NCBI GenBank assembly: GCA_030603365.1
Contig: JAUVXV010000001.1
Span: forward strand, 576,001 to 640,000
Source of the DNA: Candidatus Heimdallarchaeota archaeon
GTDB taxonomy: Archaea > Asgardarchaeota > Heimdallarchaeia > Heimdallarchaeales > Heimdallarchaeaceae
Reading direction: 5' to 3'
Length of the DNA: 64,000 bases
The position numbers and the translations under genes are program-made. Numbering within the stretch: position 1 is the first letter of the stretch; every line of letters starts with the position of its first letter. Positions 41,763-60,913 of the stretch are shown piece by piece. The notes below the pieces were generated by a model. The model did no database searches. It was not told the origin of the DNA and saw only the letters and a program-made list of their open reading frames with translations.

Positions 41763-43628
41763 ATGAGTAAACCAGATAAAGCTTTGAATAAAGCAACTGT
41801 GTATATTCTTATAGGGTTGATTTTATTAAGTTCAATATTTGCAATTATGATGTTTGGTCCAGGTTCAGGACCTCAAAACGCTTTATTTTCAACAAGTTTA
41901 AAATATTATACAAAAGGAACCGAAGAATTATATTATGTTGATTACGCACAAGATATCATCCAAGATATTAGGGAAATTGGTGTCGATGTCACTGGTTATC
42001 CTACTGAATATTCAGTATTTCTTGATCAAGTCTTCAGCTCAAAGGAATATGATATGGCTATAATAGAATTTGGGGATCTAAATTCACCACATCTTGAGTT
42101 AATGTTTAAAGAAGGTGCAAGCTATAATATATTCAATTTTGAAAATGCACTTGATGGCAATACAACTCTAAATCTACTTAATAATATAACAATAGAAACT
42201 GATTTCAACGCAAGAAAAACCTTATTCTACCAACTACAAGAGCATTTAATGTTAAATATTGTTCCAATGGTGCCATTATTTACACCAGTGAGAACTTTTG
42301 CTTATTGGGATAATTTGGAGGGATTTTACAGTGAACAAGGATTATCTCACAGCCTTCCATACATGTCTTTCAATGGTTTACATGAAGACCAAGTTACAGT
42401 AGATGAACTCTATGTAGGAGCAGGAAGATGGTTTGATCTGCATCCATTAACGATGCTTGAAGATGCAGAAAAACTAATTGTGTCACTGATGATGGATAAA
42501 CTAGTAGAACAAGATAAGAAAGGAATGGCTACAAAATTAGGTCTAATTGATAACTGGGAATACCTAAATGATACAACTCTACTACTTCATTTACGAAATA
42601 ATGTGAATTGGCAAAACGATGTTGATAATCTTTTTACAACTGAAACTCTAACTACTGCCGATGTTTTATTCACTTTAGATTTGTACAAAAGCCTTTATTC
42701 TAATCTAAACTATGAGTTATACAACTGGATAGAATCTTACGAAGAATATAACAGTACAACCGTAGTAATATATATTGATTCAAATCAATTGACACCTGAA
42801 AGAGAACCATATGGCTTTGCACTTGAGGATTTAGCTATTTATCCATTTCCTGAATACTATCTTAATGTTGAACCAACAATAGAAGATGTAGTTAATTCAG
42901 ATAGATGGACAAAATTCAGAGTTAACCCATTTGGTACAGGTAAATACTGCTTTAATGCGTCAGAAAGTCAAGAAGATCTTGCTGCCATTCTTTACCGTTT
43001 TAATGATTGGCATGGAAATGGTATCCTTCCTGGAGAACCAACTAATTTAGCTTTTAATAGAATTGAAGTTCAGATGTATGAAAGTAGCTATGTTATGAAT
43101 CTTGCTCTTCAAGAAGGAAGAATTGACTGGGCTGATTTCAAGAAAAATCCTGTTATTGAGGATGCAATACCTGAAGAAAATTTCAAGGTAGAATTTAAGA
43201 TAGAAAATTCATTAATATTCCTAGCTTTCAACTTACAGAATTCGATTTTTGGTGGAGCTAATAACTTCGAGCCTACTAACGAAACAGGAGTTTCAAAAGC
43301 TCTAGCAATAAGAAAAGCAATTGCTACAATTATTCAAAAATCCTTAACGAATGAGAGATTACATAATGGGAGATACAACCTTACAGATTCCCCGCTTACA
43401 TACTTCTTCACTGATTACTATTATACTGGAGTGACAGATTATCCCTTTAGTATTGACCAAGCGGTGGAGTACTTGATACTTGCAGGCTATAACATTTCTG
43501 CAAGGGTTGAAGATGCAGAGGAGACCAGTTTCAGTCTTGTCAGTTCAATTGTAGGTTTGAGCTTTGTCTCACCAATCTTAGTACTTATAATCAAAAGAAA
43601 AAAGATTCACTTGAAGATTAATGACTAG
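41763..43628 (+). CDS. Family 5 (Opp/Dpp) ABC substrate-binding protein, apparently circularly permuted
   Basis: LR..V.W...LTTADVLFT, PFGTGKY, LAFN, IRKAIA motifs; the usual C-terminal segment is placed first. Confidence 0.8.
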   Translation: MSKPDKALNKATVYILIGLILLSSIFAIMMFGPGSGPQNALFSTSLKYYTKGTEELYYVDYAQDIIQDIREIGVDVTGYPTEYSVFLDQVFSSKEYDMAIIEFGDLNSPHLELMFKEGASYNIFNFENALDGNTTLNLLNNITIETDFNARKTLFYQLQEHLMLNIVPMVPLFTPVRTFAYWDNLEGFYSEQGLSHSLPYMSFNGLHEDQVTVDELYVGAGRWFDLHPLTMLEDAEKLIVSLMMDKLVEQDKKGMATKLGLIDNWEYLNDTTLLLHLRNNVNWQNDVDNLFTTETLTTADVLFTLDLYKSLYSNLNYELYNWIESYEEYNSTTVVIYIDSNQLTPEREPYGFALEDLAIYPFPEYYLNVEPTIEDVVNSDRWTKFRVNPFGTGKYCFNASESQEDLAAILYRFNDWHGNGILPGEPTNLAFNRIEVQMYESSYVMNLALQEGRIDWADFKKNPVIEDAIPEENFKVEFKIENSLIFLAFNLQNSIFGGANNFEPTNETGVSKALAIRKAIATIIQKSLTNERLHNGRYNLTDSPLTYFFTDYYYTGVTDYPFSIDQAVEYLILAGYNISARVEDAEETSFSLVSSIVGLSFVSPILVLIIKRKKIHLKIND

Positions 43629-44340
43629 AATTAATGAAATAGGATTAGTGGACTTAAAGGGTAAACCACTAATTCAATCTTTTAGTGGAAGTGGAGCTAT
43701 AGGAACCATTCTATCAGCTTTCCTCATAAAAGCTTTCGAGATGGAACAAGTAGCAGTAATTCATGCAGATTCTGCCCCTCCAGTAGCAATGGTCAAGGGA
43801 GGATTAATAGAACATCCAATTAGGCTTTTCCAATCAGAAAAACTTTCATTGATGACTTGTGAAGTATCAATACCATATGCCATCCTTCCAGAATTTCTAG
43901 ATACTTTGATTCAATATTATATCGAGAAGGAAGTATCCTATATTGTACCAGTGGGAGGTTTGCCAGTTTTACCAGATAATTATGATAATGGTTATAGTTA
44001 TGGTGTAGTTAATAATTCGGACATGTTATCATTCCTAGAAGACAAAGGAATTCCACTATTAGAAGAAGGAGTTATCTATGGGTCAGTTGTAGAAGCTCTA
44101 GAATTATGTCATATTCATAATTTCAGTTCTTGTTTTGCACTTCTTGCTGAATGTGATCCAAGTTCCGCAAGCTATTATGCAACAAAGCAAATACTTCAAC
44201 AGCTGTCCAGTATCTTTGATATTGTCTTTGATGAAGATGAATTCAGTAAGGTAACTAATACAATTAAAGCTCGCATCGAAGAAAGTACTCGATACATAAG
44301 AGAAGATATAATGGATAAAACACGAGAGAGTCATCTCTAA
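43621..44340 (+). CDS. PAC2-family proteasome assembly chaperone
   Basis: SFSGSGAIGTI, PPVA...G....PIRLF, VGGL, EC.P. Confidence 0.8.
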   Translation: MTRINEIGLVDLKGKPLIQSFSGSGAIGTILSAFLIKAFEMEQVAVIHADSAPPVAMVKGGLIEHPIRLFQSEKLSLMTCEVSIPYAILPEFLDTLIQYYIEKEVSYIVPVGGLPVLPDNYDNGYSYGVVNNSDMLSFLEDKGIPLLEEGVIYGSVVEALELCHIHNFSSCFALLAECDPSSASYYATKQILQQLSSIFDIVFDEDEFSKVTNTIKARIEESTRYIREDIMDKTRESHL

Positions 44341-44428: not shown

Positions 44429-44444
44429 AAAAAAGTTTAAATAG
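44429..44444 (+). promoter_or_regulatory. Archaeal BRE/TATA promoter of the ncRNA
   Basis: aaaaaagTTTAAATA about 25 nt upstream of the GC-richer structured region starting at ~44466. Confidence 0.6.
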
Positions 44445-44465: not shown

Positions 44466-44800
44466 GGTCAAGGGTTAGGCTAGATTAGGGCTTAATGGTA
44501 ATCTAAAAGGGAACTGCAAACTGAACAGGAAGCGAAATCCGATGTTTCAGCCCTCCCAAGGGTAATCTCGGGAACTATGGTTGAACCCCTTTTTAGATGG
44601 TTTGAACCCCCATTGGGCTTAGTTAAGACCTCCTAAGCCTGAAATCCCCCAGAACCAGACTCGTGTTTGGTTTAACAGACATCTTCTGTCTGCCAGAATT
44701 TCAGTGGCTTGTGGGCTACTGGAATGGAACCCCCAACCAAACCCTCGAAACATCGAGCTAGAATCTCCTTCCTGTTCAGGCAGAAATCCCTCAGGGGTTT
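44466..44800 (+). ncRNA. Unassigned structured RNA with terminal BHB motif (tRNA-Cys-like anticodon arm interrupted by a ~266-nt intron-like RNA)
   Basis: GC-richer ORF-free island between TATA and oligo-T. Long-range pairs 44508-12/44787-91, 44514-17/44780-83, 44521-32/44768-79, 44540-48/44747-55. Internal hairpins 44616-39, 44653-72, 44676-92, 44702-21. Confidence 0.7.
44755..44797 (+). repeat. Cassette-boundary repeat R1 (3' end of the ncRNA)
   Basis: gagctagaatctccttcctgttcaggcagaaatccctcagggg followed by T-tract. Confidence 0.95.
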
Positions 44801-44928
44801 TTCTTCTTTTATTTTTGTTTATACAAAAAAAAATGATATTTTTCTTCCTTTGAGAGAATTTGGTAAAATCTAACTTGTTTTTATAAAAAGAAAATGAGTT
44901 GGGACAATAAAACTCTTAACTAATTTCT

Positions 44929-46530
44929 TTATTTTTTGTATCTCGTCTTAACAAGCGTAACTGTCCCAAGAAAAGACAATAGAACAATAAACAGACCAAA
45001 ATAAGATTCTTCAGTTTGTTCAGTTGTTGGTTTACTAGTTGCTTGGCAATCATAGTTGTAGATAAATGGATAAGGATCAGTCATGTTATAATTTCCATCT
45101 ATGACGTATTCTCCTTCTCCTTCAAAATCTGTCCAGAAGTTGCCTTGATCAGAATCATAGTCATACCACCTGTTGTTGTAATTACGATCATAAGCTTGAG
45201 AATAACCGTATTCTGTACCAGCTAAATTATTGCAGATAAAATAATTACCATAGACTTTATTCCAATTAGATTCAAAATCAGTTATACATACTCCATATTC
45301 TCTGTTTTCTTGGAAAGTGTTAGCTATAATCTCATTATTACTCGAATCTTCAAGTTTTATTCCATATCTGTTCTCGTTACAAGTATTGTTAAATATGAAA
45401 AAAGAACTTGAAACATACAAATTAATGCCATTAGTATTGTTATTACAAGTGTTATTGATTATCTGATTGTCTTCTCTATCAGGACGATCATGACTAACGA
45501 CATACATCCCATTATTCAAGTTATCATTACACTCATTATCTTGTATTAAACATGAACCGCTACGGCTAAAACGCATCCCATTCTCAATGTTTCTATTACA
45601 ATTATTCTGTTCAATAATTGAGAAATAATTTTCACTTAACCACATTCCATATGTACCATCAGAGCAGTTATTATAACCAATGTATAGATTGTTGCTATTA
45701 GCAGTAGATATTCCTACATAATTAAGTCTGAGGTCATTTCTATACATAGAAACATTGTAAAGTCCGTAAAAATAGAAACCATCATCTGCAAACTGAACAG
45801 TGTTCTCAATGAGAATAGAGTCTGCAATTGCATACAAATTAATTCCATATCGAGAGTTTGTACATAAATTATCATAGAGAGTAAGCTGTTTAGAATATGC
45901 AAAATTCATCCCATCAATGAGATTATACAAACACATGTTTTCAGTAATAGTAAATCGATCTAGAGCCCCCCCCATTATCCCACATTTATTATCATAACAA
46001 AGATTGTTGCTGATTACACTGTCATTGGAAATAAACACACCTATTCCACCCTGATTATAAGCGCATGTATTTTCACTAATGTTTAAATTTGAACAGAAAT
46101 AAGTATAGATCCCCCACACCTCAGTATTAATACAATGATTATTATTAATATCTAATATTTGACCGGTATTATTAACAAGATAGATTCCAACGAATGTAGC
46201 AGTTATAACACAGTTCTGAATTGCAAAATTCTTAGTTGTATCTCTTATTATTATTCCTGCATCTGAGGTAGTATCAATTTCAAGATTTTGTATTAAGAAT
46301 GGATTTGTTTCAGAACCATTCCCTGGAAAGCCATAAGATAGAAAATCATCATCTGAATCTATTAGTATTGGAGAGCTTGCGATTTTAATTGAATAATCTC
46401 GTGTTTCTGATAATTCAAATAAGAGAAGATTCTTTCCCTCGAATAAATTTGTCTCATTACTCTTATGCTCTCCAGAAGTGCTGACTATCATAAATATGAT
46501 GAAAAACAAATAGATGGTTCTAGATCTCAT
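44929..46530 (-). CDS. NosD/PbH1 right-handed beta-helix surface protein
   Basis: FPGNGSETNPFLIQNLEI cap, N.C..N..GI repeats, GNFWTD...DPYP, TM + basic tail. Confidence 0.85.
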   Translation of the reverse strand: MRSRTIYLFFIIFMIVSTSGEHKSNETNLFEGKNLLLFELSETRDYSIKIASSPILIDSDDDFLSYGFPGNGSETNPFLIQNLEIDTTSDAGIIIRDTTKNFAIQNCVITATFVGIYLVNNTGQILDINNNHCINTEVWGIYTYFCSNLNISENTCAYNQGGIGVFISNDSVISNNLCYDNKCGIMGGALDRFTITENMCLYNLIDGMNFAYSKQLTLYDNLCTNSRYGINLYAIADSILIENTVQFADDGFYFYGLYNVSMYRNDLRLNYVGISTANSNNLYIGYNNCSDGTYGMWLSENYFSIIEQNNCNRNIENGMRFSRSGSCLIQDNECNDNLNNGMYVVSHDRPDREDNQIINNTCNNNTNGINLYVSSSFFIFNNTCNENRYGIKLEDSSNNEIIANTFQENREYGVCITDFESNWNKVYGNYFICNNLAGTEYGYSQAYDRNYNNRWYDYDSDQGNFWTDFEGEGEYVIDGNYNMTDPYPFIYNYDCQATSKPTTEQTEESYFGLFIVLLSFLGTVTLVKTRYKK

Positions 46531-46549
46531 TTATTTTACCTTCTAATGA

Positions 46550-47347
46550 TTAATTTTTCTTCTTTCTAAATTTCTTGGTAAGACTAGTAATTGGTATAAC
46601 AAGTATAATAAAAATTGACATGTCTGACTGAATTATGGTTGTTGTAGGAGTTGTTGAGGGAGTTGTTGTAGATGTTGGTGTAGGAGTTGGAGTTGATACA
46701 TCATAAATTTCCGTTCTATTGGTAAATTCAAAATGATAAGTGATATTGGTGTTAGTAACATCGATAAACATTCTATATGTAACTACAGGAACAGGGACTG
46801 AGCTACAATTAGTGAAATCAAACCAAAGGGTGTATTCTCCTAAAGGGAGAGTCTTTTTTCCTTCAGGATAATTTAAAATTAACATTTCAAATGGAAAAGA
46901 TTTCTTATGTACTCCCGGAGTAATAATGAGAGATCCCGCAGGCCATTCATAAATAAAAACTAACTCAAGTTCGATACTTTTATTTTCAAGATTAGTTTCT
47001 AGATGAGGGAATGGAATTGGAGAACAACCATATGTACCAGTGATGTCATGTGAGGTGGGATTTTCATATTCAAGATACACATAGGTTCCAAATATTGTAA
47101 AATTGTATGAATCTTCTTCATGAAAACCTACTGAAGGAGGAAAATCGGCATCCATAATTCTCACAATTAGATATTCCTCTTCTGAAAGAACTGGAGGAAT
47201 TGCTGTACAAAATACCAAACCTAAGAGAAGTGGAATAATAATCCCCAATACCAATTTTTGATTCATTTTTATGTTTATTTTGGTTAGTAGATTTTTAGAA
47301 ATTTTCTTACTTAAAACCTCTTCAACCGTTTTCTTCTTGGGAATCAT
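46550..47347 (-). CDS. Single-domain anchored surface protein, cassette family A
   Basis: Shares RI.D...PP, ENP, TPG, LP.G.YTLW with 47560, 50674 and 51483; Thr/Pro linker; TM + KKFRKKKN. Confidence 0.7.
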   Translation of the reverse strand: MIPKKKTVEEVLSKKISKNLLTKINIKMNQKLVLGIIIPLLLGLVFCTAIPPVLSEEEYLIVRIMDADFPPSVGFHEEDSYNFTIFGTYVYLEYENPTSHDITGTYGCSPIPFPHLETNLENKSIELELVFIYEWPAGSLIITPGVHKKSFPFEMLILNYPEGKKTLPLGEYTLWFDFTNCSSVPVPVVTYRMFIDVTNTNITYHFEFTNRTEIYDVSTPTPTPTSTTTPSTTPTTTIIQSDMSIFIILVIPITSLTKKFRKKKN

Positions 47348-47462
47348 TCTACAAACCTAAATTCTGTGTTATAGACAAACTGTTTGTTGTAATTCAACTT
47401 ACCCACATTATTTATATAAAGTACGATAAGAGTATTTCAATACAATTCATTAGATAAATTTC

Positions 47463-47505
47463 GAGCTAGAATCTCCTTCCTGTTCAGGCAGAAATCCCTC
47501 AGGGA
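47463..47505 (+). repeat. Repeat R2
   Basis: 42/43 match to R1, followed by T-tract. Confidence 0.95.
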
Positions 47506-47559
47506 TTTTTTCTTCTTTTCTAAGAAACTAATATAAATGAAAAATACTTTGTATATTAG

Positions 47560-48228
47560 ATGAAAAGACTGTTCGCAAAAATTCTTTCTTCTTGGTTAGT
47601 TATCTCAGTTTTTGTTGCTTCTGTTCCAGCTTGCTCTCAAGCAGTCGATTCTGGTTATACTATCTATACACGTATAACGAATATTGATCTTCCTCCGAGT
47701 TTAATCTTCTATGGAAGCTATCCTAATCATACTTTCTTTGAGTTTTGGTATACTGCAGAAATAATCAATCCATCAGAGAAAAATCTATACATAATGACGC
47801 CTACAACTTGTCTAACTTTCATCAATGAAAATTTATCTTTCGAGAATGAATCTTACGATGGTTTTGTGTGGGGTGATCCTAAGCTATGTGGTCAATCTAT
47901 TACTAATCACACAATTGAACCTGGGATTTTGGAAGGACAACTGACATTTGAACTCTCTGTGAATGATACATTAAAGACTCTCCCCAATGGGAATTTCACC
48001 GTCTGGATTCAGTTTCATGATTATTTAGAGGAACACGAGTATATTTATTTCAAATCAACTATTGCAGTTAATGACTCGAATATCACAATAACACATGAAG
48101 GTGCAGATGTCATATTTACCTTTCCTTCAGTGTCTGCCCTCCCCAAAGAAATATCTATTTTTCTGACATTTTTAGTTATAGGACTTCCAATAATTTTTCT
48201 TGTAAGAAAACGATCACAAATGGTCTAG
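47560..48228 (+). CDS. Single-domain anchored surface protein, cassette family A
   Basis: Signal peptide; GYTIYTRIT, EIINP, TPTTCL, LCGQ, LPNGNFTVW; TM + RKR. Confidence 0.75.
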   Translation: MKRLFAKILSSWLVISVFVASVPACSQAVDSGYTIYTRITNIDLPPSLIFYGSYPNHTFFEFWYTAEIINPSEKNLYIMTPTTCLTFINENLSFENESYDGFVWGDPKLCGQSITNHTIEPGILEGQLTFELSVNDTLKTLPNGNFTVWIQFHDYLEEHEYIYFKSTIAVNDSNITITHEGADVIFTFPSVSALPKEISIFLTFLVIGLPIIFLVRKRSQMV

Positions 48229-48256
48229 TTCTTTAGTCTAATTGAATTGAGACATC

Positions 48257-48299
48257 GAGCTAGAATCTCCTTCCTGTTTAGGCAGAAATCCTTCAGGGT
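48257..48299 (+). repeat. Repeat R3
   Basis: 40/43 match to R1, extended 5' by acatc. Confidence 0.95.
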
Positions 48300-48363
48300 T
48301 TGTTCTTCCTTTCCTTATGCTTTCAAACAATATTACAGAAAGCTTTTATTTCTTCAAAAATAG

Positions 48364-48975
48364 TTGACCTTGATATCTATGAGCAAAGATAGTATTTCTC
48401 TAAATATGCTTACCTTAGCTAGTGATCCATTAAGAATATCAATCTGGTTTGAAATCCAAAGAAAAGCTGGAATTACTGCAAAAGAAATAATTCAAAAACT
48501 TAAACTTGAAGGTACTAATATCTACTATCATCTTAATAAACTTGAAAGAAGTAGATTGATTGTATCAGAATCTAAACCCGTTCCAAAATCAAATTTGTTA
48601 GAGAAATATTATAGCATAAATGTGGCTTTTTTTGCACCCGAGGAATGGAAAGCAAGATTTGACATAGGTAAATCAACAAAACATTTGAAGGATATGATTC
48701 TATACAATTTGTATTTCAACATGTTTTTGATTAACAAACAGATTATTGACGTTCAAGAACAAACTAATGAACAGATTCAGAAGAATATTGAACAATATGG
48801 TAAATTTGTCTCTAAATTTATTTTTCTGCAAAAGGATGACTTACCAAAAGTGAGCGCGAAAATAGATGAGTTCTTTGAATTTTTAAACCAAATCAAAAGA
48901 GACGCTGATAGGGATCCAATAACCGATATCAGTGATGCAACAGATACAATTCTTATCAACCTCCTCCCACTCTAA
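48364..48975 (+). CDS. ArsR-like winged-helix transcriptional regulator
   Basis: SDPLRISI, TAKEI...L, NIYYHLNKLE...LI, EKYY. Confidence 0.8.
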   Translation: MTLISMSKDSISLNMLTLASDPLRISIWFEIQRKAGITAKEIIQKLKLEGTNIYYHLNKLERSRLIVSESKPVPKSNLLEKYYSINVAFFAPEEWKARFDIGKSTKHLKDMILYNLYFNMFLINKQIIDVQEQTNEQIQKNIEQYGKFVSKFIFLQKDDLPKVSAKIDEFFEFLNQIKRDADRDPITDISDATDTILINLLPL

Positions 48976-49060
48976 TCTCTATTTAAGAAAATACATTCCA
49001 ATATATTTGAGCGCTACAACAAATTTAAATAAGCTTAATTGTTCTTAAATATGTGTTTGT

Positions 49061-49840
49061 GTGGTTTTAAGGATGAATAATTCCAAGAATGATCACAAGA
49101 AGTATCACCAAAGTCTGATGAGGAAACAAAAGAAGTTATACCCAAATCCAGGTGAAGTTCTTTTTGAATCAGAAACCAAAGCCAGAATAGGTAAGAAACC
49201 TTTCCGAAAAACACTCAAAATTTCTTCCAAAAATAAGATACTTTTACAGGTATGTTCTTCTATTTTATTTTTCACTCTTTTTTATGTTTATGTCACCACT
49301 CACCACTCATCCAATGCATTATTATTTTTGATTGCTTTCACCCTGCTCTATGTTTTTACTTCTACAATTCTATTCGGTTCTTTAATCAAATTTCTATCTG
49401 GTGAGCATTACTCTTTTGGAGTAATTTTTTCTGAATTCTTCTTTGTTATAGGTATTATGATTGGAACATTTAGTGCCTTGTACCTACCCATATTGCTCAT
49501 TCTTTTTGCATCTGAAAAAAGTGGTGAGTGGTTAAGATATGCTCTAACTACAGCTCTCGTAGTTGCACCCCTCTCGTATATATTTAGCGTCAGTTATGAA
49601 TTTCTTAGAAAAGAAGGATACAAAATAAGAGAAATTTTCCTGTATTTTCGAATTAAGAAGCTCAGAAGAGAGGAACTAAAGAAAGAAACACAAAAGGTAG
49701 ATATTTTTTATGAAAAGATAGGCAATATATCAGAGAACTATAAAGAAAGAATCAGTAGAACATTAACAAGAGAAGACATCATTGAGCAAAACAAAGACAC
49801 TCGAACTACTAATTCTATAAAAGAAACAAATATACAATAG
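49061..49840 (+). CDS. 4-TM membrane protein, cassette family B (divergent)
   Basis: Same layout as 49842 and 61661: 4 TMs then IF.Y...K.R.EE..K.T..D.FY. Confidence 0.65.
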   Translation: MVLRMNNSKNDHKKYHQSLMRKQKKLYPNPGEVLFESETKARIGKKPFRKTLKISSKNKILLQVCSSILFFTLFYVYVTTHHSSNALLFLIAFTLLYVFTSTILFGSLIKFLSGEHYSFGVIFSEFFFVIGIMIGTFSALYLPILLILFASEKSGEWLRYALTTALVVAPLSYIFSVSYEFLRKEGYKIREIFLYFRIKKLRREELKKETQKVDIFYEKIGNISENYKERISRTLTREDIIEQNKDTRTTNSIKETNIQ

Positions 49841-49841
49841 G

Positions 49842-50591
49842 TTGAAATTAATGCAAGAATCAGTACTTAGCAAGACTAAAAGATTTTTCAGGAAAAATGA
49901 TATCTTCTTCAAAGTCTCTCTTTTTTTATTTCTAGCCGCGGGTACAGCATATGCATTTATTTTTGGAAACGCTCTACTTAAAATTGTAGCATCTCTATCT
50001 CTCGGAACTATGATTGCTTCATTTATCTCAAATTATGTTTTCAATTATCTTTATGGAGACGCATTCAAGCTTACACATGCAATAAATGAGATACTTTACT
50101 TGTTCCTAGGAATTCCAATAATGATCATAGCAATAGGTTACTTGCCGCTCAGTGTTTATATTCTCTTTTTTTCAACTGAAAATAATGAATGGATTGTCCC
50201 AATCTTAATTGGTATAATGGTAACAATGCAAATATCCTCTTTCATTTACATAATAAAAAGAAGGAGTAAAGAGAAAAGGAAAAATATCTTCCAGTTTATC
50301 AAATATATGTTCGACTTTAAAACAAGAGCAGAAGAGCAAAGAAAATTGCAAAAACAAACAGATCAAATAGACCGTTTCTACACAGACATGGAGAAAGTAA
50401 GGGATAGAGTAGATACCACAATGGAACGCAGTACCATAGATTTTGATGAGTTTGATTGGAAGAAAGTAAGAGGGATTAATCGAGAAGATAAAACAGAGGT
50501 AATCTGCTGGAATTGTAAAGAGACTAATAATACTAGTAATCTTGTATGTTCGAGCTGTGGAGTGGCTCTAAAGGAAAAATTATCGAGCTAG
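49842..50591 (+). CDS. 4-TM membrane protein with C-terminal zinc ribbon, family B
   Basis: CWNC..CSSC at C-terminus; stop codon TAG lies inside repeat R4. Confidence 0.75.
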   Translation: MKLMQESVLSKTKRFFRKNDIFFKVSLFLFLAAGTAYAFIFGNALLKIVASLSLGTMIASFISNYVFNYLYGDAFKLTHAINEILYLFLGIPIMIIAIGYLPLSVYILFFSTENNEWIVPILIGIMVTMQISSFIYIIKRRSKEKRKNIFQFIKYMFDFKTRAEEQRKLQKQTDQIDRFYTDMEKVRDRVDTTMERSTIDFDEFDWKKVRGINREDKTEVICWNCKETNNTSNLVCSSCGVALKEKLSS

Positions 50592-50627
50592 AATCTCCTT
50601 CCTGTTCAGGCAGAAATCCCTCAGGGG
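50585..50627 (+). repeat. Repeat R4
   Basis: Identical to the R1 core. Confidence 0.95.
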
Positions 50628-50673
50628 TTTTACTTCTTTCTTTGGAATTAATAAACTATTTAAGGTCAGAATA

Positions 50674-51348
50674 GTGAGTATATTGATGAAGAGATTTCAC
50701 AAGAATTTAATTTCCTTCTGTTTTGTTTCCCCTTTGATACTTACTTACATTGTTTCATTTACTCAGGCTTCAACTTCTGGTTATACAATTTATACACGAA
50801 TAACTGATATAACTCTCCCTCCAGAGATAGTTGAGAAAACTTTCTTCCCTAATCATACAGCGTTTGAATTTGATTATACTGGAGAAATCATAAATCCCAC
50901 GGGGATTGATTTGTTTATCTGGACACCAACTACTTGCTTAGTTCATAATACTGGAAATATAACTTTTGAAAATGAACAAAATGATGGTCACATTCTCGGG
51001 GGAGAAACCCTCTGTGGACAGGCATTCACTCAACATAAGATACCTCCTGGAATTTCTGAAGGAACATTACCCCTTTACATTTCTATAAATGGTACAGTTG
51101 AGACTCTCCCAAATGGAAATTACTCTGTATGGATTGTCATACCTGATTGTGAAGATCAACATGATTATGTTCATTATCCGTCAATTATCTCAGTTTCAAA
51201 TTCTAATATTGTAACTACTCATACTGGAGCAAATATGACTTTCACTTTCCCATCTGTACCCTCATTCCCTCCCCTTCCAGTTTATTCCTTATTTGTTTTC
51301 TTTATTTTGTTGACTATTATACATTACATTAGAAAAAGAAAAATATGA
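50674..51348 (+). CDS. Single-domain anchored surface protein, cassette family A
   Basis: Close paralog of 47560..48228 (SGYTIYTRIT, TPTTCL, LCGQ, LPNGNY.VW). Confidence 0.75.
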   Translation: MSILMKRFHKNLISFCFVSPLILTYIVSFTQASTSGYTIYTRITDITLPPEIVEKTFFPNHTAFEFDYTGEIINPTGIDLFIWTPTTCLVHNTGNITFENEQNDGHILGGETLCGQAFTQHKIPPGISEGTLPLYISINGTVETLPNGNYSVWIVIPDCEDQHDYVHYPSIISVSNSNIVTTHTGANMTFTFPSVPSFPPLPVYSLFVFFILLTIIHYIRKRKI

Positions 51349-51382
51349 TTTATGATCAAATGCTGTAATTTTCTTCAACATC

Positions 51383-51425
51383 GAGCTAGAATCTCCTTCC
51401 TGTTCAGGCAGAAATCCTTCAGGGG
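51383..51425 (+). repeat. Repeat R5
   Basis: 42/43 match to R1, extended 5' by aacatc. Confidence 0.95.
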
Positions 51426-51482
51426 TTTTTCTTCTTTTCTTTGCCTATGTTTTAAATACCTGTTTGTCAAAATTGTATACTG

Positions 51483-52127
51483 ATGATTCAATTTGATAAA
51501 ACTAAAATCTCATCGGTTTTTGTTTTTTTACTTGTATTTTTCTTCTTTGTGAATATTGTACAATCTGATCCAGAAGATATACTTTATAGTCGCATTTCTG
51601 AAATTACTATAAATACTCCTAACTATTCTTCCGAATATAATTATACAGATTTCGATTTTAGTTTTATCATAGAGTTATATAATCCTATGAATGAAGTTAT
51701 ACTTATCTCAACTCCACACTCAATTCTCTTTAATCCTCACGTCAATGTTAGTTTTGCTAATGATTCCTACTCGCTATTTTTCTTGTATGGCTATTATACT
51801 GTACCAACTGATCACTCCATCCCTCCTAATACCACAACTTATTTGAGAGATTATCCTCTTCATTTTACAGATGCAAACCTAACACGATTACCTGAAGGAA
51901 ATTATACCTTATGGTTTGAATTAGATGGACCATCACCTATCACCTATCAACCATTGTCCTCCTTCATAAATGTAAACGACACAACAATAGAAATTTCTCA
52001 TGAAGAATATAATGGTTCATTATTTGTAATTCCTGAATATTCAAGGTTCTTTGTTTATTTTGGAACAACTCATTTATGTTTGATAATATTGATGATTTTT
52101 TTCTTCAAAAAAAGAAGAAATCATTAG
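51483..52127 (+). CDS. Single-domain anchored surface protein, cassette family A
   Basis: YSRISEI, ELYNP, STP, LPEGNYTLW; TM + KKRR. Confidence 0.72.
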   Translation: MIQFDKTKISSVFVFLLVFFFFVNIVQSDPEDILYSRISEITINTPNYSSEYNYTDFDFSFIIELYNPMNEVILISTPHSILFNPHVNVSFANDSYSLFFLYGYYTVPTDHSIPPNTTTYLRDYPLHFTDANLTRLPEGNYTLWFELDGPSPITYQPLSSFINVNDTTIEISHEEYNGSLFVIPEYSRFFVYFGTTHLCLIILMIFFFKKRRNH

Positions 52128-52139
52128 AATTCAATGAAT

Positions 52140-52182
52140 GAGCTAGAATCTCCTTCCTATTCAAGCAGAAATCTCTCAGGGT
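52140..52182 (+). repeat. Repeat R6 (most diverged)
   Basis: 39/43 match to R1. Confidence 0.9.
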
Positions 52183-52320
52183 TTTTCTTTCATTATTTTA
52201 CTTCAAAAATGTAATTTTCTTCTTAAAATGTACAAATAGTTGTACGGATTAAAGCATGCTCTGTACAAAGCATTATATTAAATCTGTTGGAAGACTTGTG
52301 ATAATTAGTCGATAATTCAA

Positions 52321-53034
52321 GTGATAAACATGAGTGAAAAAGACCTTTTGGGAAAAGCAATCGCTCGTTATTTAACCAAGAATTTTGTAAAGTGGTTTAG
52401 TATTGGTTTCGGTGCAGCTCTAATTCTTGGAACTGTTATTGGAGTTAGTTTTTATTATGGTTTCAATCCCTTAACCGACCATGATCCAGATCCTGATATA
52501 CCTTTCTCAACAAGGTTGGCAGAGGAGATAGCTTCAGAGATACCTAATGTTGTTCATGTGATTATAACTGGTAATGCCACTCAAGCTATTCATGAAAGGT
52601 TAAGTTGGGCTATAATCGACCAAGAAGGTGATAACACTTCATATAGTTGGAATGTAACAGCATATGTTATGTTCCCAGCTGATGCCATTAATTTTCTCCT
52701 TTCCACAGCTGAAGTTAATGAGATTGGAACAGGACTGGTTACATCAATTACAAACACTGAAAGAGTAGGAACATTTGGGGTAGCACCTTATGGTGAAGAT
52801 CCTGAACCACCAAACATGAAATGGTCAACAGAATTGTATTTAGCTAATTATACTGTAATTTTGTTATTTATTGATATGGAAGGTTTGATTCTCTTCCAGA
52901 CATCAACTTGGCAAGGAGATTACAATATAGATGATACTGATATGCAAGGATCAGCTGTTCTTTTACCTGAAAGTGCGTTTGATGATTATATACAAGTACT
53001 AAAGGATTTGTTTACACCCCATCTACAAATATAG
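52321..53034 (+). CDS. N-terminally anchored acidic hypothetical protein
   Basis: Single N-terminal TM; acidic ectodomain. Confidence 0.6.
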   Translation: MINMSEKDLLGKAIARYLTKNFVKWFSIGFGAALILGTVIGVSFYYGFNPLTDHDPDPDIPFSTRLAEEIASEIPNVVHVIITGNATQAIHERLSWAIIDQEGDNTSYSWNVTAYVMFPADAINFLLSTAEVNEIGTGLVTSITNTERVGTFGVAPYGEDPEPPNMKWSTELYLANYTVILLFIDMEGLILFQTSTWQGDYNIDDTDMQGSAVLLPESAFDDYIQVLKDLFTPHLQI

Positions 53035-53136
53035 AAGAAATGATTATTGTAGGATTTAATAATTGTGTAGTATAATCTAAATTATTCTTGAAAAAAGAAA
53101 ATTAGTTGAGGTAATAAAACTCTTACCCATTCTTCT

Positions 53137-54765
53137 TTATTTATTGTATCTCGTTTTAACAATCACAACAGTCCCAAGGAAAGATAATAGAACAATGAAA
53201 AAACCAAAAGAAGATTCTTCAGGTGGGTCAGTTGTTGGTTCACTAGTTACTTGGCAATCATAATAGTATTCAAATGGATAAGGATCCGTCCTATTGTGGT
53301 TTCCATCAATTTGATACTCTCCTTCTCCTTCATAATCGTTCCAATAATTCCCTTCATCTGTTGCGCTTTCATACCATCTATTGTTATATCCTTCATCATA
53401 AGCTTGAGAAAAGCCATGCTCTGTACCATTTCTGTTATTGCAGATGAAATAATTGTGATGTATCTTGTTCCAAGTTGACCAATCCCAAATCTTTATCCCA
53501 TATTCTATATTTTCTTGTAAGATGTTATATGAAATTGTTGTGAAATCTGTTTCCTCAAGTATAATGCCATTTTGATTATTTTTGCATGTGTTATTGGCTA
53601 TTGTTAGTGAATCAACTTCCCTTAAGCGAATTCCAATATTGCTATCACTACAGGTATTTAAAACAATACTGGGAGTTCCTTTATAGATTGTAATTCCATA
53701 ATCAACATTTCGAATTACAGTATTGTTCAGTACTTGAGTTGCTATGCTTGTGTGAATATCAATTCCTGCATATTCATTATCATAACAGTAGTTATTTTTG
53801 ATTATTGATGCAGAATCAGCGATAATATCTATTCCTGAGGTGCTGGAATTACATGTGTTTTCTTGAATAGTCATTTCTTCAGTGTAAGCCATCCTAATGC
53901 CATAATGACTTTCAGTACAGTAATTTTTCTGAATTGTAGCTAGAGAAGAATATTGACAATAAATTCCCCAATTTGTATTTTCACAAGAATTTTCAGATAT
54001 TGTACCTAAACTAGATGAAAGAAAACTTATCCCCCACCATGAACTGGTAACAGTATTCGAAGTAGCATTGACCGAATTCGAACCTAAAATATGAATACCT
54101 GCATTGTTTGCGGAATAGCAATAATTATCTTCAATTATAGAATTGTGTGTTTGAGATAATGCAATTCCGAAGTCACTGTTATAACATTCATTATTCTTTA
54201 TTATCTCGTGGTTTGAATAGTAACATACAATTCCTACAGCACCACCACTGCACTTGTTGTTAGATATGGTTACATAATTTGTTGAATAGATGTAAATTCC
54301 ATACCACTCATCTCCATGACAAACATTATTGCTAATCTCAATATTTTCAATAGTGAGATCACTTATGCTTATTGCTGATACATTTGCATTCACTGTGCAG
54401 AATTGAATTTTGAAATGCTTTGTGACATTTGTAATAAAAATTCCGAATTCCAGATCTGTTTCTATTGTGTAGTATTCTATAAGATACGGTTCTTCCTCAG
54501 TTCCAATTCCAGGAAAACCATACGAGTCGAAATCTTGGTCATTCAGTATGATAATGGGGTCTAGATAGGACAATTTAATATTATATTGATGTTCATAAAC
54601 AGAATTACTGTATTGATCTATTGATCTTCCCCCTTGATTTGTCAATTCAAACTGTTGCATGTTTAGGATTGTTATAAGCATTAGAAGGATATAAAAGAAC
54701 TTAATAGATCTTAATGTTCTACTCTTCATAATATTCTGTCCTCTATATGTAATAATGTCATTCAT
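53137..54765 (-). CDS. NosD/PbH1 beta-helix surface protein
   Basis: FPGIGTEEEPYLIE cap, PbH1 repeats, GNYWND, TM + basic tail. Confidence 0.85.
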   Translation of the reverse strand: MNDIITYRGQNIMKSRTLRSIKFFYILLMLITILNMQQFELTNQGGRSIDQYSNSVYEHQYNIKLSYLDPIIILNDQDFDSYGFPGIGTEEEPYLIEYYTIETDLEFGIFITNVTKHFKIQFCTVNANVSAISISDLTIENIEISNNVCHGDEWYGIYIYSTNYVTISNNKCSGGAVGIVCYYSNHEIIKNNECYNSDFGIALSQTHNSIIEDNYCYSANNAGIHILGSNSVNATSNTVTSSWWGISFLSSSLGTISENSCENTNWGIYCQYSSLATIQKNYCTESHYGIRMAYTEEMTIQENTCNSSTSGIDIIADSASIIKNNYCYDNEYAGIDIHTSIATQVLNNTVIRNVDYGITIYKGTPSIVLNTCSDSNIGIRLREVDSLTIANNTCKNNQNGIILEETDFTTISYNILQENIEYGIKIWDWSTWNKIHHNYFICNNRNGTEHGFSQAYDEGYNNRWYESATDEGNYWNDYEGEGEYQIDGNHNRTDPYPFEYYYDCQVTSEPTTDPPEESSFGFFIVLLSFLGTVVIVKTRYNK

Positions 54766-54771
54766 TGTTTT

Positions 54772-56364
54772 TTATTTTCTATATCTTTTTGTAGTAACAA
54801 CAACAGTCCCAAGAACTGATAATACAATAATGAGAAGACCAAAGTAAGATTCTTCAGTTGGTACGATTGTTGGTTCACTAGTTACTTGGCAATAATAATA
54901 GTATTCAAAGGGATAGGGATCAGTGTTGTTATCTTTTCCGTCAATCTGATACTCTCCAATCCCTTCATAATCGTTCCAATAGTTCCCTTCATCTGTAGAG
55001 CTTTCATACCATCTGTTATTATACCCTTCATCATAAGCTTGAGAAAAACCATGCACAGTACCATTTCTATTGTTGCAGATGAAGTAATTGTGATGAATTT
55101 TATTCCAGGTTGACCAATCACCAATCTTGATTCCATATTCAATATTCTCTTGTAGAATATTGTAGGAGATGGTTGAAAAATCTGTTTCGGACAGAACAAT
55201 TCCTTTTATATTCATTGCACAAGTATTGTTAGAAAGAGTAATTGATTGTACTCCTGTTATAGATATTCCAATTCTATTGAAACTGCAATTGTTCAGAAGG
55301 ACATTAGGAGAGCCTTTATAAATTGTAATGCCCGATAATTTATTCATAAAAAGCGAATTGTTTGTTACCGAAGTAGATATGCCTCTCCAGATATTTATAC
55401 CATACTCAGAATTACTGTAGCAAACATTGTTTCGAACTTGAGATTCGGAATCTTCATCAACTGCAATACCTTGTTGACAAGAATGACACTCATTTTCTGA
55501 AACATTTATCTTTCCAGTGTGCCAAAGTTCAATACCTGCAATACTATTTATGCACAAATTTCTATCTATAACTGCTCTATTTGAATATTCTGCCAATATC
55601 CCCCAAAATGTATTATTACAAAAATTATCAGTTATATAACCAAAACTGGAACTAATGAAGTCTATTCCAAAACCTGACTTATAAACTGTATTTCGAGAGA
55701 TGTTAATATAGCTAGAATACATAATGTGAATTCCAGCATAACTGTTGTGATGGCAGTAATTATCTCCAATATAGGAGTTATCGGTTTCATATAGGGCTAT
55801 ACCAAAATCATTGTAAATGCATTCATTATTCTCGATGAACTCATTATTTGAGTACCAACAAACAATCCCTACTGCACCTCCTCTGCACCAATTATCAGTT
55901 ATTATCACATAATCTGTTGAATAAATATAGATTCCATACCATTCTTCTACTTGACAAACATTATTTCGAATTTCTATATTCTCTACTGTTAGATCACTAA
56001 CGCTGATTGCTGATACACTTGCATAAACTACACAGTATTGGATTTTGAAATGCTTGGTAGTGTTTGTAATAAATATCCCAAATTCCTCATCTGTATCTAT
56101 TGTGTAGTTTTCTATAAGATAAGGCTCTTCTTCTGTTCCTTGACCTGGAAAAGCATAATAAATGAAATCTTGGTCATTGATTATAATTATAGGATCACTC
56201 ACGGTTAGTTTAACCTCATTAAATATTTCCACTGAAGATATCTGTTCAATATTATCATGTTCCATATCCTTAGAAATTTCATCGCTATTTGCATAAAAAA
56301 ACAATAAAATAATCAAACTGACGTAAATAACTCTCTTTTTTCTCTGATTCATACATTTCCTCAT
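54772..56364 (-). CDS. NosD/PbH1 beta-helix surface protein
   Basis: Close paralog of 53137..54765. Confidence 0.85.
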   Translation of the reverse strand: MRKCMNQRKKRVIYVSLIILLFFYANSDEISKDMEHDNIEQISSVEIFNEVKLTVSDPIIIINDQDFIYYAFPGQGTEEEPYLIENYTIDTDEEFGIFITNTTKHFKIQYCVVYASVSAISVSDLTVENIEIRNNVCQVEEWYGIYIYSTDYVIITDNWCRGGAVGIVCWYSNNEFIENNECIYNDFGIALYETDNSYIGDNYCHHNSYAGIHIMYSSYINISRNTVYKSGFGIDFISSSFGYITDNFCNNTFWGILAEYSNRAVIDRNLCINSIAGIELWHTGKINVSENECHSCQQGIAVDEDSESQVRNNVCYSNSEYGINIWRGISTSVTNNSLFMNKLSGITIYKGSPNVLLNNCSFNRIGISITGVQSITLSNNTCAMNIKGIVLSETDFSTISYNILQENIEYGIKIGDWSTWNKIHHNYFICNNRNGTVHGFSQAYDEGYNNRWYESSTDEGNYWNDYEGIGEYQIDGKDNNTDPYPFEYYYYCQVTSEPTIVPTEESYFGLLIIVLSVLGTVVVTTKRYRK

Positions 56365-56367
56365 TTT

Positions 56368-58002
56368 TCATCTTATCCGTTTATTATGATTCTTGTATCT
56401 CCTTTCCTTTTTATATCGCATTTTAGCAATCGACATAGTCCCAATAAATGATAATACAACAGTAAGAAGACTTAAAGAAGATTCTTCTGTTGGTTCAGTT
56501 ATTGTTTCTGTTGTTATACACTCAAAATAGTATTCAAATGGATAAGGATCAGTCATATTGTATTTACCATCTATTGAGTATTCTCCTTCTCCTTCATAAT
56601 CTGTCCAAAAATTGCCTGTGTTTGAATCAAAATCATACCACCTATTGTTATAACTACGATCATAAGCTTGGGAAAAACCGTATTCTGTACCAGCTAAGTT
56701 ATTGCAGATAAAGTAATTGCCATAGATTCTATTCCATGTAGATTCAAAATCTGTTATACATACTCCATATTCTCTGTTTTCTTGGAAAGCATTAGAAATT
56801 ATCTCATTATTACTCGAATCTTCAAGTTTCATTCCATATCTGTTCTCGTTACAAGTATTGTTAAATATGAAAAAAGAACTTGAGACGTACAAATTAATAC
56901 CATAAGTATTGTTATTACAAGTGTTACTGATTATCTGATTGTCTTCTCTATCAGAACGTTCATGTCTAAAGACATACATCCCATTGTCCAAATTGTCATT
57001 ACAGGTGTTATTCACTACTAAGCAAGAACCACTTGAACGCAAGTAAATTCCATCCCGTGTATTATTGTTGCAGATATTATGATCTATTAATGAAGACTGA
57101 CTTTGAGTTGTCCAAATTCCGTATGTACCAGCAGAACAGTTGTTATAAACAATGTCAACACCATAAGTACCATGGTTATCTATTCCAATATAAGTGAAGA
57201 CAATATTATTTCTAATCACTGTAATGTTTTTAAGATAGGAAAGAGTAAATCCATTGTCCGAATATTCAATGGTGTTTTCTGAGAGAATGGCATCTTCTAC
57301 TGAATATAAATCGATCCCAATTCTAGTGTTTGAGCAAAAATTATTTTGTAGGTTTATATTTTTTGAATATGCTTGATTTATACCAATTTTGAGGTTGTAT
57401 ACACAATAATTGTTCGTTATTATTGTGCCTTCTGCACCCCCTCCTATTATACCATATTCATTATCATAGCAGAGATTATTTACAATTTTACTATAGTTAG
57501 AATAAAAAACTCCTATACCTGCTTGAGTATAAGCACAAGTATTATTGGAAATAGTCAGGTTTGGGCAAAGAAAAACATATATCCCATAAATGGCGCTATT
57601 TGTGAAATGGTTGTTGTTGATTGAAGAATAACTTCCTGTGTTATTAAATAGATGAATACTTGTGGCACTTGCACTTACACTGCAATTGAAAATGACAAAA
57701 TTCAAGGTTGTATCTCTAATAAATATGCCAAAATCTGAATCTGTTTCAATCTCTAGATTTTGTATTAAGAATGGATTAGTCTCAGAACCATTCCCTGGAA
57801 GACCATAAGATAGAAAATCATCATCTGAACCTATTAGTATAGGAGAGCTTGCGATTTTAAATGAATAATCTCGTATTTCTGATAAATCTAATAAGAAATG
57901 ATCCTTTCCCTCGAATGAATTTATCTCTTTACTCTTGTAATTACCAGAAGTGCTGACTAGCATAAATACGAAAAGAAACAAACAGATGGTTCTAGATTTC
58001 AA
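56368..58002 (-). CDS. NosD/PbH1 beta-helix surface protein
   Basis: Close paralog of 44929..46530. Confidence 0.85.
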   Translation of the reverse strand: MKSRTICLFLFVFMLVSTSGNYKSKEINSFEGKDHFLLDLSEIRDYSFKIASSPILIGSDDDFLSYGLPGNGSETNPFLIQNLEIETDSDFGIFIRDTTLNFVIFNCSVSASATSIHLFNNTGSYSSINNNHFTNSAIYGIYVFLCPNLTISNNTCAYTQAGIGVFYSNYSKIVNNLCYDNEYGIIGGGAEGTIITNNYCVYNLKIGINQAYSKNINLQNNFCSNTRIGIDLYSVEDAILSENTIEYSDNGFTLSYLKNITVIRNNIVFTYIGIDNHGTYGVDIVYNNCSAGTYGIWTTQSQSSLIDHNICNNNTRDGIYLRSSGSCLVVNNTCNDNLDNGMYVFRHERSDREDNQIISNTCNNNTYGINLYVSSSFFIFNNTCNENRYGMKLEDSSNNEIISNAFQENREYGVCITDFESTWNRIYGNYFICNNLAGTEYGFSQAYDRSYNNRWYDFDSNTGNFWTDYEGEGEYSIDGKYNMTDPYPFEYYFECITTETITEPTEESSLSLLTVVLSFIGTMSIAKMRYKKERRYKNHNKRIR

Positions 58003-58005
58003 TTA

Positions 58006-59532: not shown

Positions 59533-60797
59533 TGAGCCACTTCCAGGCTTGAACCTTTTCTCTTTCTTCTCCTTATAACTTGAAAAAGAAATGCTGATTC
59601 AATTAGTAGTAAGCACCATAAATCAAAAGATAAAATGGATGTATGAGGTGTTGATGTCATATGTAGTATATTTTCAAAGGTCTTCAGTTTTAGTTTATAG
59701 GTCCTTTCTTCAGTTGTTGAGTTATAATATTCTTCGAAAACATAAAATGATGTTACTGGATCTGAAAGGCTATACAGTCTTAAAATTGTTGAGCCATATG
59801 GATATGTTTCCATATGTACAAGGTTACCATCAGCTGAAAAGATTTTCAGAACACACACCGTAGTTCCATGTTTAGTACTAGTTTTCATAACATAATACTC
59901 CCCATTGAAATGACAATCAAAATAATACGAACTCATTGTTTTAGTTTCCAAAGTAAAATTGTTGACCAACTCATTATCATAAGATATCTGAGAAGCAAAA
60001 GTGGGTCCATATGTGTAATTTGTGTAAATAACACTAATTCCCTTTTCATATAATGAAATTGAGTGAATTTCTTGACTTAGTTTTCTATGCCAAACAACAG
60101 ACCTATTATTGGTATCTATTTTTAATATATCATCTTTGTAAGCAACAAACAAATCTCCTTTGTGGTTTTCAGCAAATTTCCAATCTAGGAAAGGTCTTGA
60201 TCTAGTATAATTCATCGTATTTATAGTTGTGAAACTTACTTCCCAGTCATAATATCCTGTCTCATTGAATGCATAAATCGTCGTATTTGTATAGTTGATA
60301 TCATCTATTGAGAAGAAACCTTCAATTCTTCCAAGGTAGAAATTGCCTTTATTTGAAAGCCCAATCTCATTTAGATAAATAGTATCTAATGTTATTTTTC
60401 TTATTAAACTCATATTTGAATCGAATTTGATATACGTACAATTGTATTGATTAGGAGGCCAAACCATATACGTGAAAATATTCCCATCATCATCCATAAT
60501 CGGATCGTTGCTGAAATCAGCATTGTTTTTGGGAGCATTAAGTATTTCGTTCCCATTTTTGTCAAATTTAAGAAAGTGTATGTACCCTTCGTACATTGCA
60601 TCTAATGTAAGTAGTGTATTTTGATATTTATCAATTCCATGGCTTTCCATACTTCGAACAACCATATACTTGTACATTTCTCCAAACTCAATTTCCCAAA
60701 GATCCTCAGCTGTATTATCTAAAGATTGAATTGGAATAACTGAAATACATAAACAAATCAACAAGAAATAACATATAATTTTCTTCTTGGGTATCAT
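59529..60797 (-). CDS. Secreted beta-rich (beta-propeller-like) anchored protein
   Basis: Signal peptide; LKFDKNGN, DDDGNIF, IFSADGNL blade-like motifs; TM + RRRKRK. Confidence 0.55.
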   Translation of the reverse strand: MIPKKKIICYFLLICLCISVIPIQSLDNTAEDLWEIEFGEMYKYMVVRSMESHGIDKYQNTLLTLDAMYEGYIHFLKFDKNGNEILNAPKNNADFSNDPIMDDDGNIFTYMVWPPNQYNCTYIKFDSNMSLIRKITLDTIYLNEIGLSNKGNFYLGRIEGFFSIDDINYTNTTIYAFNETGYYDWEVSFTTINTMNYTRSRPFLDWKFAENHKGDLFVAYKDDILKIDTNNRSVVWHRKLSQEIHSISLYEKGISVIYTNYTYGPTFASQISYDNELVNNFTLETKTMSSYYFDCHFNGEYYVMKTSTKHGTTVCVLKIFSADGNLVHMETYPYGSTILRLYSLSDPVTSFYVFEEYYNSTTEERTYKLKLKTFENILHMTSTPHTSILSFDLWCLLLIESAFLFQVIRRRKRKGSSLEVAQ

Positions 60798-60913
60798 TTT
60801 ACTTACCTTAGTTTTTTGAAATAGAGAAGCTATTTTCTATAATAAGGTATTTCCACAATATATATTAAAAGCTAGATGAGAGTATTTCAATACAATTTGT
60901 TAATCGAATTTTA

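Follow-up and report, generated by a model that had tools for sequence, protein, structure and literature searches.

[quoted passage not shown] A tRNA intron can itself contain a functional RNA, as does the intron of the Haloferax tRNA-Trp, which carries a C/D box sRNA. BHB-flanked permuted genes also exist in archaea (PMC4731332); in Thermoproteus the gene for the circular SRP RNA is permuted, and circularisation restores the normal topology of the molecule (Plagens et al., 2015; PMC4731332). Circular pre-16S and pre-23S intermediates as well as a circular 23S rRNA have been described in archaea (PMC7038931; PMC12918454), and the circular RNAs of Sulfolobus have been catalogued (Danan et al., 2012; PMC3326292). 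With regard to the enzyme, the (alpha-beta)2 architecture of EndA was reported in 44 of 60 Asgard genomes, and EndA enzymes of broad specificity can cut relaxed motifs (bioRxiv 10.64898/2026.10.13.758758).

The locus described here is a free-standing gene whose structured non-coding RNA is lineage-specific and belongs to the family of Ca. Heimdallarchaeum. Its transcript is likely to be processed to a ring, and in one genus (g1, the genus of the genome studied here) its 3′ end has been an insertion site. The unannotated gene occupies positions 44466–44815 on the forward strand of the window, by which we mean the whole stretch of 64,000 nt that was analysed. It is enriched in G+C (0.43–0.44 vs ~0.32 in the flanks), its longest open reading frame (ORF) has at most 54 codons, and no conserved ORF was found across the RNA homologues. 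To its left lies a PAC2-family gene (43621–44340, forward strand) and to its right a NosD-like gene (44929–46530, reverse strand). The transcript start at 44466 was placed from the position of the TATA box. The features of the gene are as follows.

44430–44443, forward strand: BRE/TATA promoter AAAAAAGTTTAAATA, read in the sequence
44436–44443, forward strand: TATA box TTTAAATA, its centre ~26 nt upstream of 44466
44466–44519, forward strand: 5′ leader (“5′ exon”), ending in the BHB outer helix and the central-helix strand
44508–44532, forward strand: 5′ half of the BHB, AGGGAACTGCAAACTGAACAGGAAG, unique in the window; it consists of the outer strand AGGGA, an extra A, the central strand CUGC, the bulge AAA (predicted cut 44519/44520) and the inner strand CUGAACAGGAAG
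44520–44785, forward strand: predicted excised, circularised RNA of 266 nt
44540–44548, forward strand: 5′ strand of helix P2 (9 bp), cgatgtttc, which pairs with 44747–44755
44747–44755, forward strand: 3′ strand of helix P2, gaaacatcg, which pairs with 44540–44548
44768–44791, forward strand: 3′ half of the BHB, CTTCCTGTTCAGGCAGAAATCCCT; it consists of the inner strand CUUCCUGUUCAG, the central strand GCAG, the bulge AAA (predicted cut 44785/44786) and the outer strand UCCCU
44796–44823, forward strand: oligo-T terminator, with GGGG at 44796–44799 followed by a T-rich tract from 44800 (TTTTTCTTCTTTTATTTTTG)

The minimum free energy (MFE) fold of the RNA gene, at −115.7 kcal/mol (z = −3.1 vs shuffles), contains the outer helix of the BHB and its 4-bp central helix with the AAA bulge, as well as the helices of 12 and 9 bp; about six hairpins are located inside these. 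An earlier, sequence-only reading had proposed the 4-bp central helix, the AAA bulges and the inner hairpins, all of which were reproduced by this fold, and the two BHB strands were found exactly where that reading had placed them. The further 9-bp helix was present as it had been described, the TATA box and the oligo-T terminator that it had placed on either side of the RNA were both read at the locus, and cutting both bulges behind their second nucleotide indeed gives a piece of 266 nt. The one extra A that it had seen on the outer side is real, and in this genome the outer side has no clean bulge. The predicted excised RNA is closed by the 12-bp helix and also has helix P2, a GNRA-type element and a branched core, in which C-rich GAACCCC motifs and the invariant GACCUCCUAA are located.

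The promoter sequence GTTTAAATAG was kept upstream of the homologues in g1 and in two further genera of the family (g10 and g11), while variants were observed in g12 (GTTTATATAAG), in g13 (ATTTATAAATA) and in one g1 subclade (TAAATATG). Most homologues have a T-rich tract after the BHB, which in a few of them lies within ~5–25 nt of the motif. We propose that a precursor of ~340 nt would be transcribed from the gene's own TATA promoter and ended by the oligo-T terminator, and that the two ends of this precursor would pair into the BHB. EndA would then cut at the two bulges, at 44519/44520 and 44785/44786, and RtcB would close the 266-nt middle piece into a ring, with the short leader and trailer as by-products. 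The predicted junction sequences are ...GUUCAGGCAGAA/ACUGAACAGG..., ...CCUGUUCAGGCAGAA/ACUGAACAGGAAG... and ...GGGAACUGCAA/AUCCCUCAGG.... The junction TGTTCAGGCAGAAACTGAACA was sought in metagenome contigs and was absent, as expected for DNA assemblies, and this result is uninformative on the ring.

The genome encodes two EndA-domain ORFs (C13:113944 and C1:60945) and one RtcB. The presence of two EndA paralogues is consistent with the (alpha-beta)2 form of broad specificity that was reported for most Asgard genomes. Introns were called by ARAGORN in 14 of the 42 tRNA genes of the genome, which indicates that the EndA/RtcB pathway is in use. As a separate observation, ARAGORN reported a tRNA-Met with a 786-nt intron at G000:C1:102329-103210.

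Homologues of the RNA were detectable at BLAST level in 22 of the 24 genomes of the same genus. Further searches were performed with a 19-nt pattern, a covariance model (R1) and a gapped pattern made of two invariant blocks (GACCTCCTAA...CCCCAGAA); the full homologue alignment has 478–496 columns, and the covariance model was restricted to a core of 81 positions. Covariance model and pattern searches together located the RNA in each of the five genera that were sampled from a single family. The genomes with the RNA, by any method, were distributed as follows.

g1: 22 of 24 genomes
g10: 2 of 2 genomes
g11: 1 of 1 genome
g12: 1 of 1 genome
g13: 2 of 2 genomes

The two g13 genomes are the closed genomes of Ca. 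Heimdallarchaeum aukensis PM71 and Ca. H. endolithica PR6 (CP084166, CP084167), and their homologues were recovered by pattern scan; the terms “non-coding” and “ncRNA” are absent from the paper on these genomes (PMC8813620). Nine more copies of the RNA were found on metagenome contigs. The predicted excised size in the homologues ranged from 213 to 290 nt. The homologues differ from each other by the gain or loss of whole hairpins of ~20–45 nt, which points to a structured RNA rather than a protein.

The covariance model gave no match in 52 genomes from six other families of the class, an absence that is provisional since the model also missed g13. A degenerate pattern of the BHB 5′ strand, allowing two mismatches, gave matches outside the family at the control level. 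Sixteen candidates from this search were inspected; at least five were evidently coding sequence, and a 3′ partner was lacking in all of them save one piece at a contig end, which belongs to an already known homologue of the genus. The confinement of the RNA to one Heimdall family is, on these sequence searches, a provisional conclusion. The sequence-only reading had proposed an unknown RNA family, and an Rfam search bore this out: no family (Rfam 15) matched inside the RNA of the window at the gathering threshold or at E ≤ 10, and none matched the g13 and g10 homologues at E ≤ 1. The RNA is a new family of a known processing kind, unusual in that the “intron” would be all that the gene is for.

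The genomic neighbourhood of the RNA gene differs between genera. A PAC2 gene lies directly upstream of it in g1, g11 and g12, while in g10 and g13 (L069 in G041; L091 and L123 in Ca. Heimdallarchaeum) the RNA gene is located just upstream of the gene for eS30. A PAC2 paralogue was sought in g10 and g13, and none was found. A functional link between PAC2 and the RNA was considered and is unsupported, as no paralogue was found in these two genera and eS30 is the neighbour there.

The BHB motif was parsed in 29 full-length homologues, and the central helix was paired at four of four positions in all of them. The motif takes the following form in each genus, with the 5′ half written as outer, central, bulge and inner segments and the 3′ half as inner, central, bulge and outer segments.

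g1: 5′ AGGGA-A-CUGC-AAA-CUGAACAGGAAG; 3′ CUUCCUGUUCAG-GCAG-AAA-UCCCU
g10: 5′ CAAGGAA-AUGU-AAA-CUGAACAGAAGG; 3′ CCCUCUGUUCAG-GCAU-UAA-UUCCUUG
g11: 5′ UGAA-CUGC-AAA-CUGAACAAGAAG; 3′ CUUCUUGUUCAG-GCAG-AAA-UUCA
g12: 5′ AAAG-CUAC-AAA-CUGGACAGGAAG; 3′ CUUCCUGUCCAG-GUAG-AAA-CUUU
g13: 5′ GGGAA-GUGU-AAA-CCAGAUAGGAAG; 3′ CUUCCUAUCUGG-GCAC-AAA-UUUUU

The 5′ bulge was AAA in all parsed homologues and the 3′ bulge was AAA, UAA, AAU or UUA, with the exception of one g1 subclade (G005 type) with AAAA, where the four nucleotides form either a 4-nt bulge or, in another reading, a 3-nt bulge next to an A.A mismatch. The bulges sit 3′ of their central-helix strand, and apart from the fourth A of the G005-type subclade their size and position are constant. 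The inner helix retained 11–12 of 12 pairs in nearly every full-length homologue. The outer helix has 4–8 pairs, and its sequence varies by clade (AGGGA/UCCCU, AAAGGG/CCCUUU, CAAGGAA/UUCCUUG, UGAA/UUCA).

[quoted passage not shown] Two Watson-Crick pair types occur at 7 of the 12 inner-helix positions, and in P2 there are compensatory changes from UA to AU in two sequences and from CG to UA in six. RNAalifold gave the same BHB helices and P2. Both BHB strands are invariant inside g1, and the covariation rests only on the comparison between genera. The conservation that the sequence-only reading had named as a check on its motif is therefore seen among the homologues, and the central, inner and outer helices all show covariation. 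By these comparisons of sequence, a motif conserved with compensatory changes in five genera is more than chance. As the size and position of the bulges do not drift, the BHB appears to be under selection as an EndA substrate and not as a generic stem.

In the window copy and in most of g1, the outer side deviates by one nucleotide from the canonical motif, and the inner half (HBh′) is canonical. Two registers can be drawn for this outer side: in the first, a 1×3 internal loop is followed by five Watson-Crick pairs; in the second, a clean 3-nt bulge is followed by A-U, an A.C mismatch, G-C, G-C and G.U. A strict EndA might cut this slightly non-canonical motif poorly. Clean 3-nt bulges on both strands are found in g10, g11, g12, g13 and some g1 members, which makes the motif a textbook hBHBh′ in the other genera, and in g10 the outer helix is a perfect 7 bp.

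The slightly non-canonical motif of g1 also favours the best-surviving alternative, a linear RNA of ~330 nt in which the BHB-like element is only an uncut stem at the two ends, whose conserved bulges might, for instance, bind a protein. We regard it as unlikely, since exactly four central pairs and two 3-nt bulges are kept via compensatory changes in five genera, EndA and RtcB are both present and in use, and sequence change is much faster in the leader and trailer than between the predicted cuts. Within the genus, the excised part was 0.92 identical (mean pairwise identity over ungapped columns), whereas the leader reached 0.54–0.59 and the trailer 0.53. The ring would therefore be the conserved product, and hence the functional one. 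Taken together, the BHB with its covariation, the conserved middle piece and the presence of EndA and RtcB make circularisation a well-supported prediction. We infer that the precursor is cleaved and circularised, and that the ring would be the active species rather than a re-opened linear form. By analogy with what has been proposed for rRNA, the ring could also be a processing intermediate that is later re-opened.

Several elements of the predicted ring provide leads on function. The closing rod, the adjacent GNRA-type element, several GAACCCC motifs and the 10-mer GACCUCCUAA are common to the five genera, and ACCUCCUA, which lies within this 10-mer, is identical to the 3′ end of 16S rRNA. 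A low-confidence guess would be that the ring is an RNP scaffold or a decoy, showing single-stranded C-rich motifs and the anti-Shine-Dalgarno-like GACCUCCUAA. GGAGG was found upstream of only ~3% of the crude ORF starts in the genome, where Shine-Dalgarno sequences are weakly used, and by reading of the sequence part of the motif of the GACCUCCUAA region would sit in another stem in g13. Given the rarity of GGAGG at ORF starts and the different placement of the motif in g13, the anti-Shine-Dalgarno decoy was kept only as a low-confidence lead. A separate observation concerns the 16S rRNA 3′ end itself (L072, G000:C8, ~1500–1560, reverse strand), where ~33 extra nt lie between CUGCGG and GGAUCACCUCC; these may represent a small intron.

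The last ~60 nt of the RNA gene, comprising the end of P2, the 3′ half of the BHB and the terminator, recur six times downstream in the window, always on the forward strand.

47461–47519, forward strand: extra copy 1
48250–48312, forward strand: extra copy 2, with two changes in the 24-mer
50582–50640, forward strand: extra copy 3
51377–51438, forward strand: extra copy 4
52140–52189, forward strand: extra copy 5, the most decayed, with three changes, two of which would break pairing
60914–60969, forward strand: extra copy 6, which carries the ancestral downstream flank, orthologous to the sequence right after the RNA gene in G023

These direct copies of the RNA 3′ end bound six cassettes, which form an array at 44815–60969. 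Among their genes are three diverged paralogues for a secreted or anchored protein of ~220 aa (at 47560, 50674 and 51483), which are 26–47% identical to each other and are flanked by repeats that are >87% identical. The cassettes also hold five NosD-like beta-helix genes on the reverse strand, a gene for an HTH protein (48364) and genes for membrane proteins with zinc ribbons (49061 and 49842). In arrays of other genomes, a SecY-family ORF of 428–433 aa, presumably an extra paralogue, was observed before a repeat copy (L026 of G003, 9794–11080, reverse strand; L036 of G006). Two reverse-strand genes of the window, 46550–47347 and 59529–60797, have in common their start MIPKKK and ~110 nt upstream of it, including a TATA-like box; the shared upstream sequence adjoins repeat copies 1 and 6, which points to a promoter module that was duplicated with the repeat.

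Extra copies were found only in g1, in numbers of 0–6 per genome, and they lie on the contig and strand of the RNA gene. A copy in G022 (contig C90; L071, 1400–1560) is on another contig than the full-length gene; it is truncated to the last ~150 nt of the RNA, from the GACCUCC hairpin on, and keeps ~115 nt upstream of the inner-helix strand. In most copies the 5′ limit is ~4–25 nt upstream of the inner-helix strand. The copies in each species share RNA 3′-end variants private to that species (gagctagaatct, gagtcagaatcc or gagttagaatgc), a pattern of concerted evolution. The content of the arrays varies by species: G013 and G005 have one cassette of 0.78 kb each, G016 has at least one and G003 has four, and in G020 an insert of ~3 kb has no detectable second copy of the repeat. 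In G023 the site is empty, and the RNA gene directly precedes the orthologue of window 60914–61585; G000 has ~16 kb between the two repeats.

Since the distal repeat keeps the ancestral flank, insertion would have taken place at the RNA gene and brought a replacement 3′ end with it. The RNA gene stays intact because each cassette brings its own copy of this end. The 3′ end of the RNA gene acts as an insertion site where cassettes gathered, in g1 only. As at known attachment sites, the inserted DNA sits between direct copies of the gene's 3′ end, and in a relative the site is unfilled; an integrase was not found in the insert. A recombinase domain was sought in 15 insert ORFs and none was found, and the sole PF00589 match of the genome is on contig C11. 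No IntI was found in the genome, and the repeat, when inspected, proved to match the RNA 3′ end rather than to be an imperfect inverted repeat of the attC type. On the right flank of the array, an ORF at 62538–63371 has a highly acidic N-terminus and a Pfam “Recombinase” domain (PF07508) with no resolvase catalytic domain; it is conserved at this place in G003 and G013 and could be a serine-integrase remnant or a DNA-binding relic. We would put forward only as a doubtful idea that the 3′ half of the BHB is the docking site of an integron-like platform (recombinase or RNA-guided capture), whose small cassettes, with their own promoters and genes for secreted and surface proteins, would come with a working replacement of both splice signal and terminator, and in which the 5′ half may cut in trans.

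The repeats also bear on a reading in which the unique 5′ half acts in trans with the six copies of the 3′ half and forms intermolecular BHBs, with trans-splicing or cleavage of the cassette transcripts as the outcome. The copies keep the inner-helix strand, the central strand, the bulge and the outer strand, both strands are invariant in the genus, and RNAduplex gave −28 to −33 kcal/mol for the 5′ half with the two copies that lie ≤6 kb downstream of it, the scan covering the 6 kb upstream of each copy; within that distance no copy had a nearby partner of its own. We nevertheless consider this reading very improbable. The copies are restricted to g1 and vary in number, G023 having none beyond the gene itself, some have changes that break the central or the inner helix, the cassette genes occur in both orientations, every copy has a terminator at its end, and the pattern is accounted for by insertion.

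A permuted copy of a universal RNA, such as SRP RNA, RNase P RNA or 5S rRNA, whose normal order would be re-established in the ring as happens in Thermoproteus, would have a precedent in the BHB-flanked permuted genes known from archaea (PMC4731332), and it is still harder to sustain. The SRP RNA of the genome is located elsewhere, at full length (91 bits, C14:291610-291917), as is the RNase P RNA (163 bits, C1:492966-493289), even a partial Rfam match is lacking inside the RNA at E ≤ 10 and in the two distant homologues at E ≤ 1, and the RNA is restricted to one family. The chance is close to negligible that the ligated exons are a functional, decayed or unusual tRNA(Cys)-like molecule with the 266-nt piece as its intron at 37/38: the spliced loop CUGCAAA does equal the anticodon loop of the genome's true tRNA-Cys, but a canonical BHB leaves a 7-nt loop after splicing, this loop drifts by genus (AUGUAAA, CUACAAA, GUGUAAA), ARAGORN finds no tRNA in the window, the spliced exons score 33 against tRNA-Cys where shuffles score 32.3 ± 4.2, the 3′ exon reaches the terminator within ~15 nt and is thus without a T arm and acceptor stem, and the exons are the least conserved part.

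No known archaea are more closely related to eukaryotes than the Heimdallarchaeia, whose non-coding RNA repertoire is, to our knowledge, almost unexplored. On the preferred reading of a stand-alone gene processed to a ring, the splicing machinery seemingly makes a ring RNA as its sole product and does not repair an interrupted gene, which would widen the known uses of EndA and RtcB. The RNA can serve as a family-specific, conserved experimental target that is present in two named closed genomes, those of Ca. Heimdallarchaeum aukensis and Ca. H. endolithica, which came from enrichment cultures. The cassette array shows that a non-tRNA RNA gene can be an insertion site in archaea, and it may explain the assembly breaks seen at the RNA locus in several of the genomes examined.

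The array resembles the attachment sites at tRNA and tmRNA genes, in that direct repeats of the 3′ end of a small RNA bound the insert, a relative has the empty site and the 3′ end is restored. What differs here is that the targeted gene does not encode a tRNA and that the repeat coincides with the 3′ half of a BHB, with inserts down to 0.76 kb that hold one gene and no integrase; by analogy, the small one-gene inserts look more like integron cassettes. As for the RNA itself, it shares with the Thermoproteus SRP RNA a free-standing non-coding RNA gene whose ends form a BHB, from which EndA excision and ligation produce a circular functional RNA in that organism. In contrast to the Thermoproteus gene, the present RNA is without a known family and shows no detectable permutation, and the genome has its true SRP RNA at another locus. 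With the circular rRNAs it has in common a long processing stem with a BHB that flanks a functional RNA, and there RtcB closes the ring; those rRNAs are part of an operon and their ring is mostly re-opened later, whereas the ~266-nt product predicted here comes from a single-gene transcript. The functional tRNA introns offer a third comparison, since the piece excised at their BHB is stable, circular and functional, as is predicted for the present RNA. Their exons form a real tRNA, whereas here the exons are vestigial and not tRNA-like, which would leave the “intron” as the sole product of the gene.
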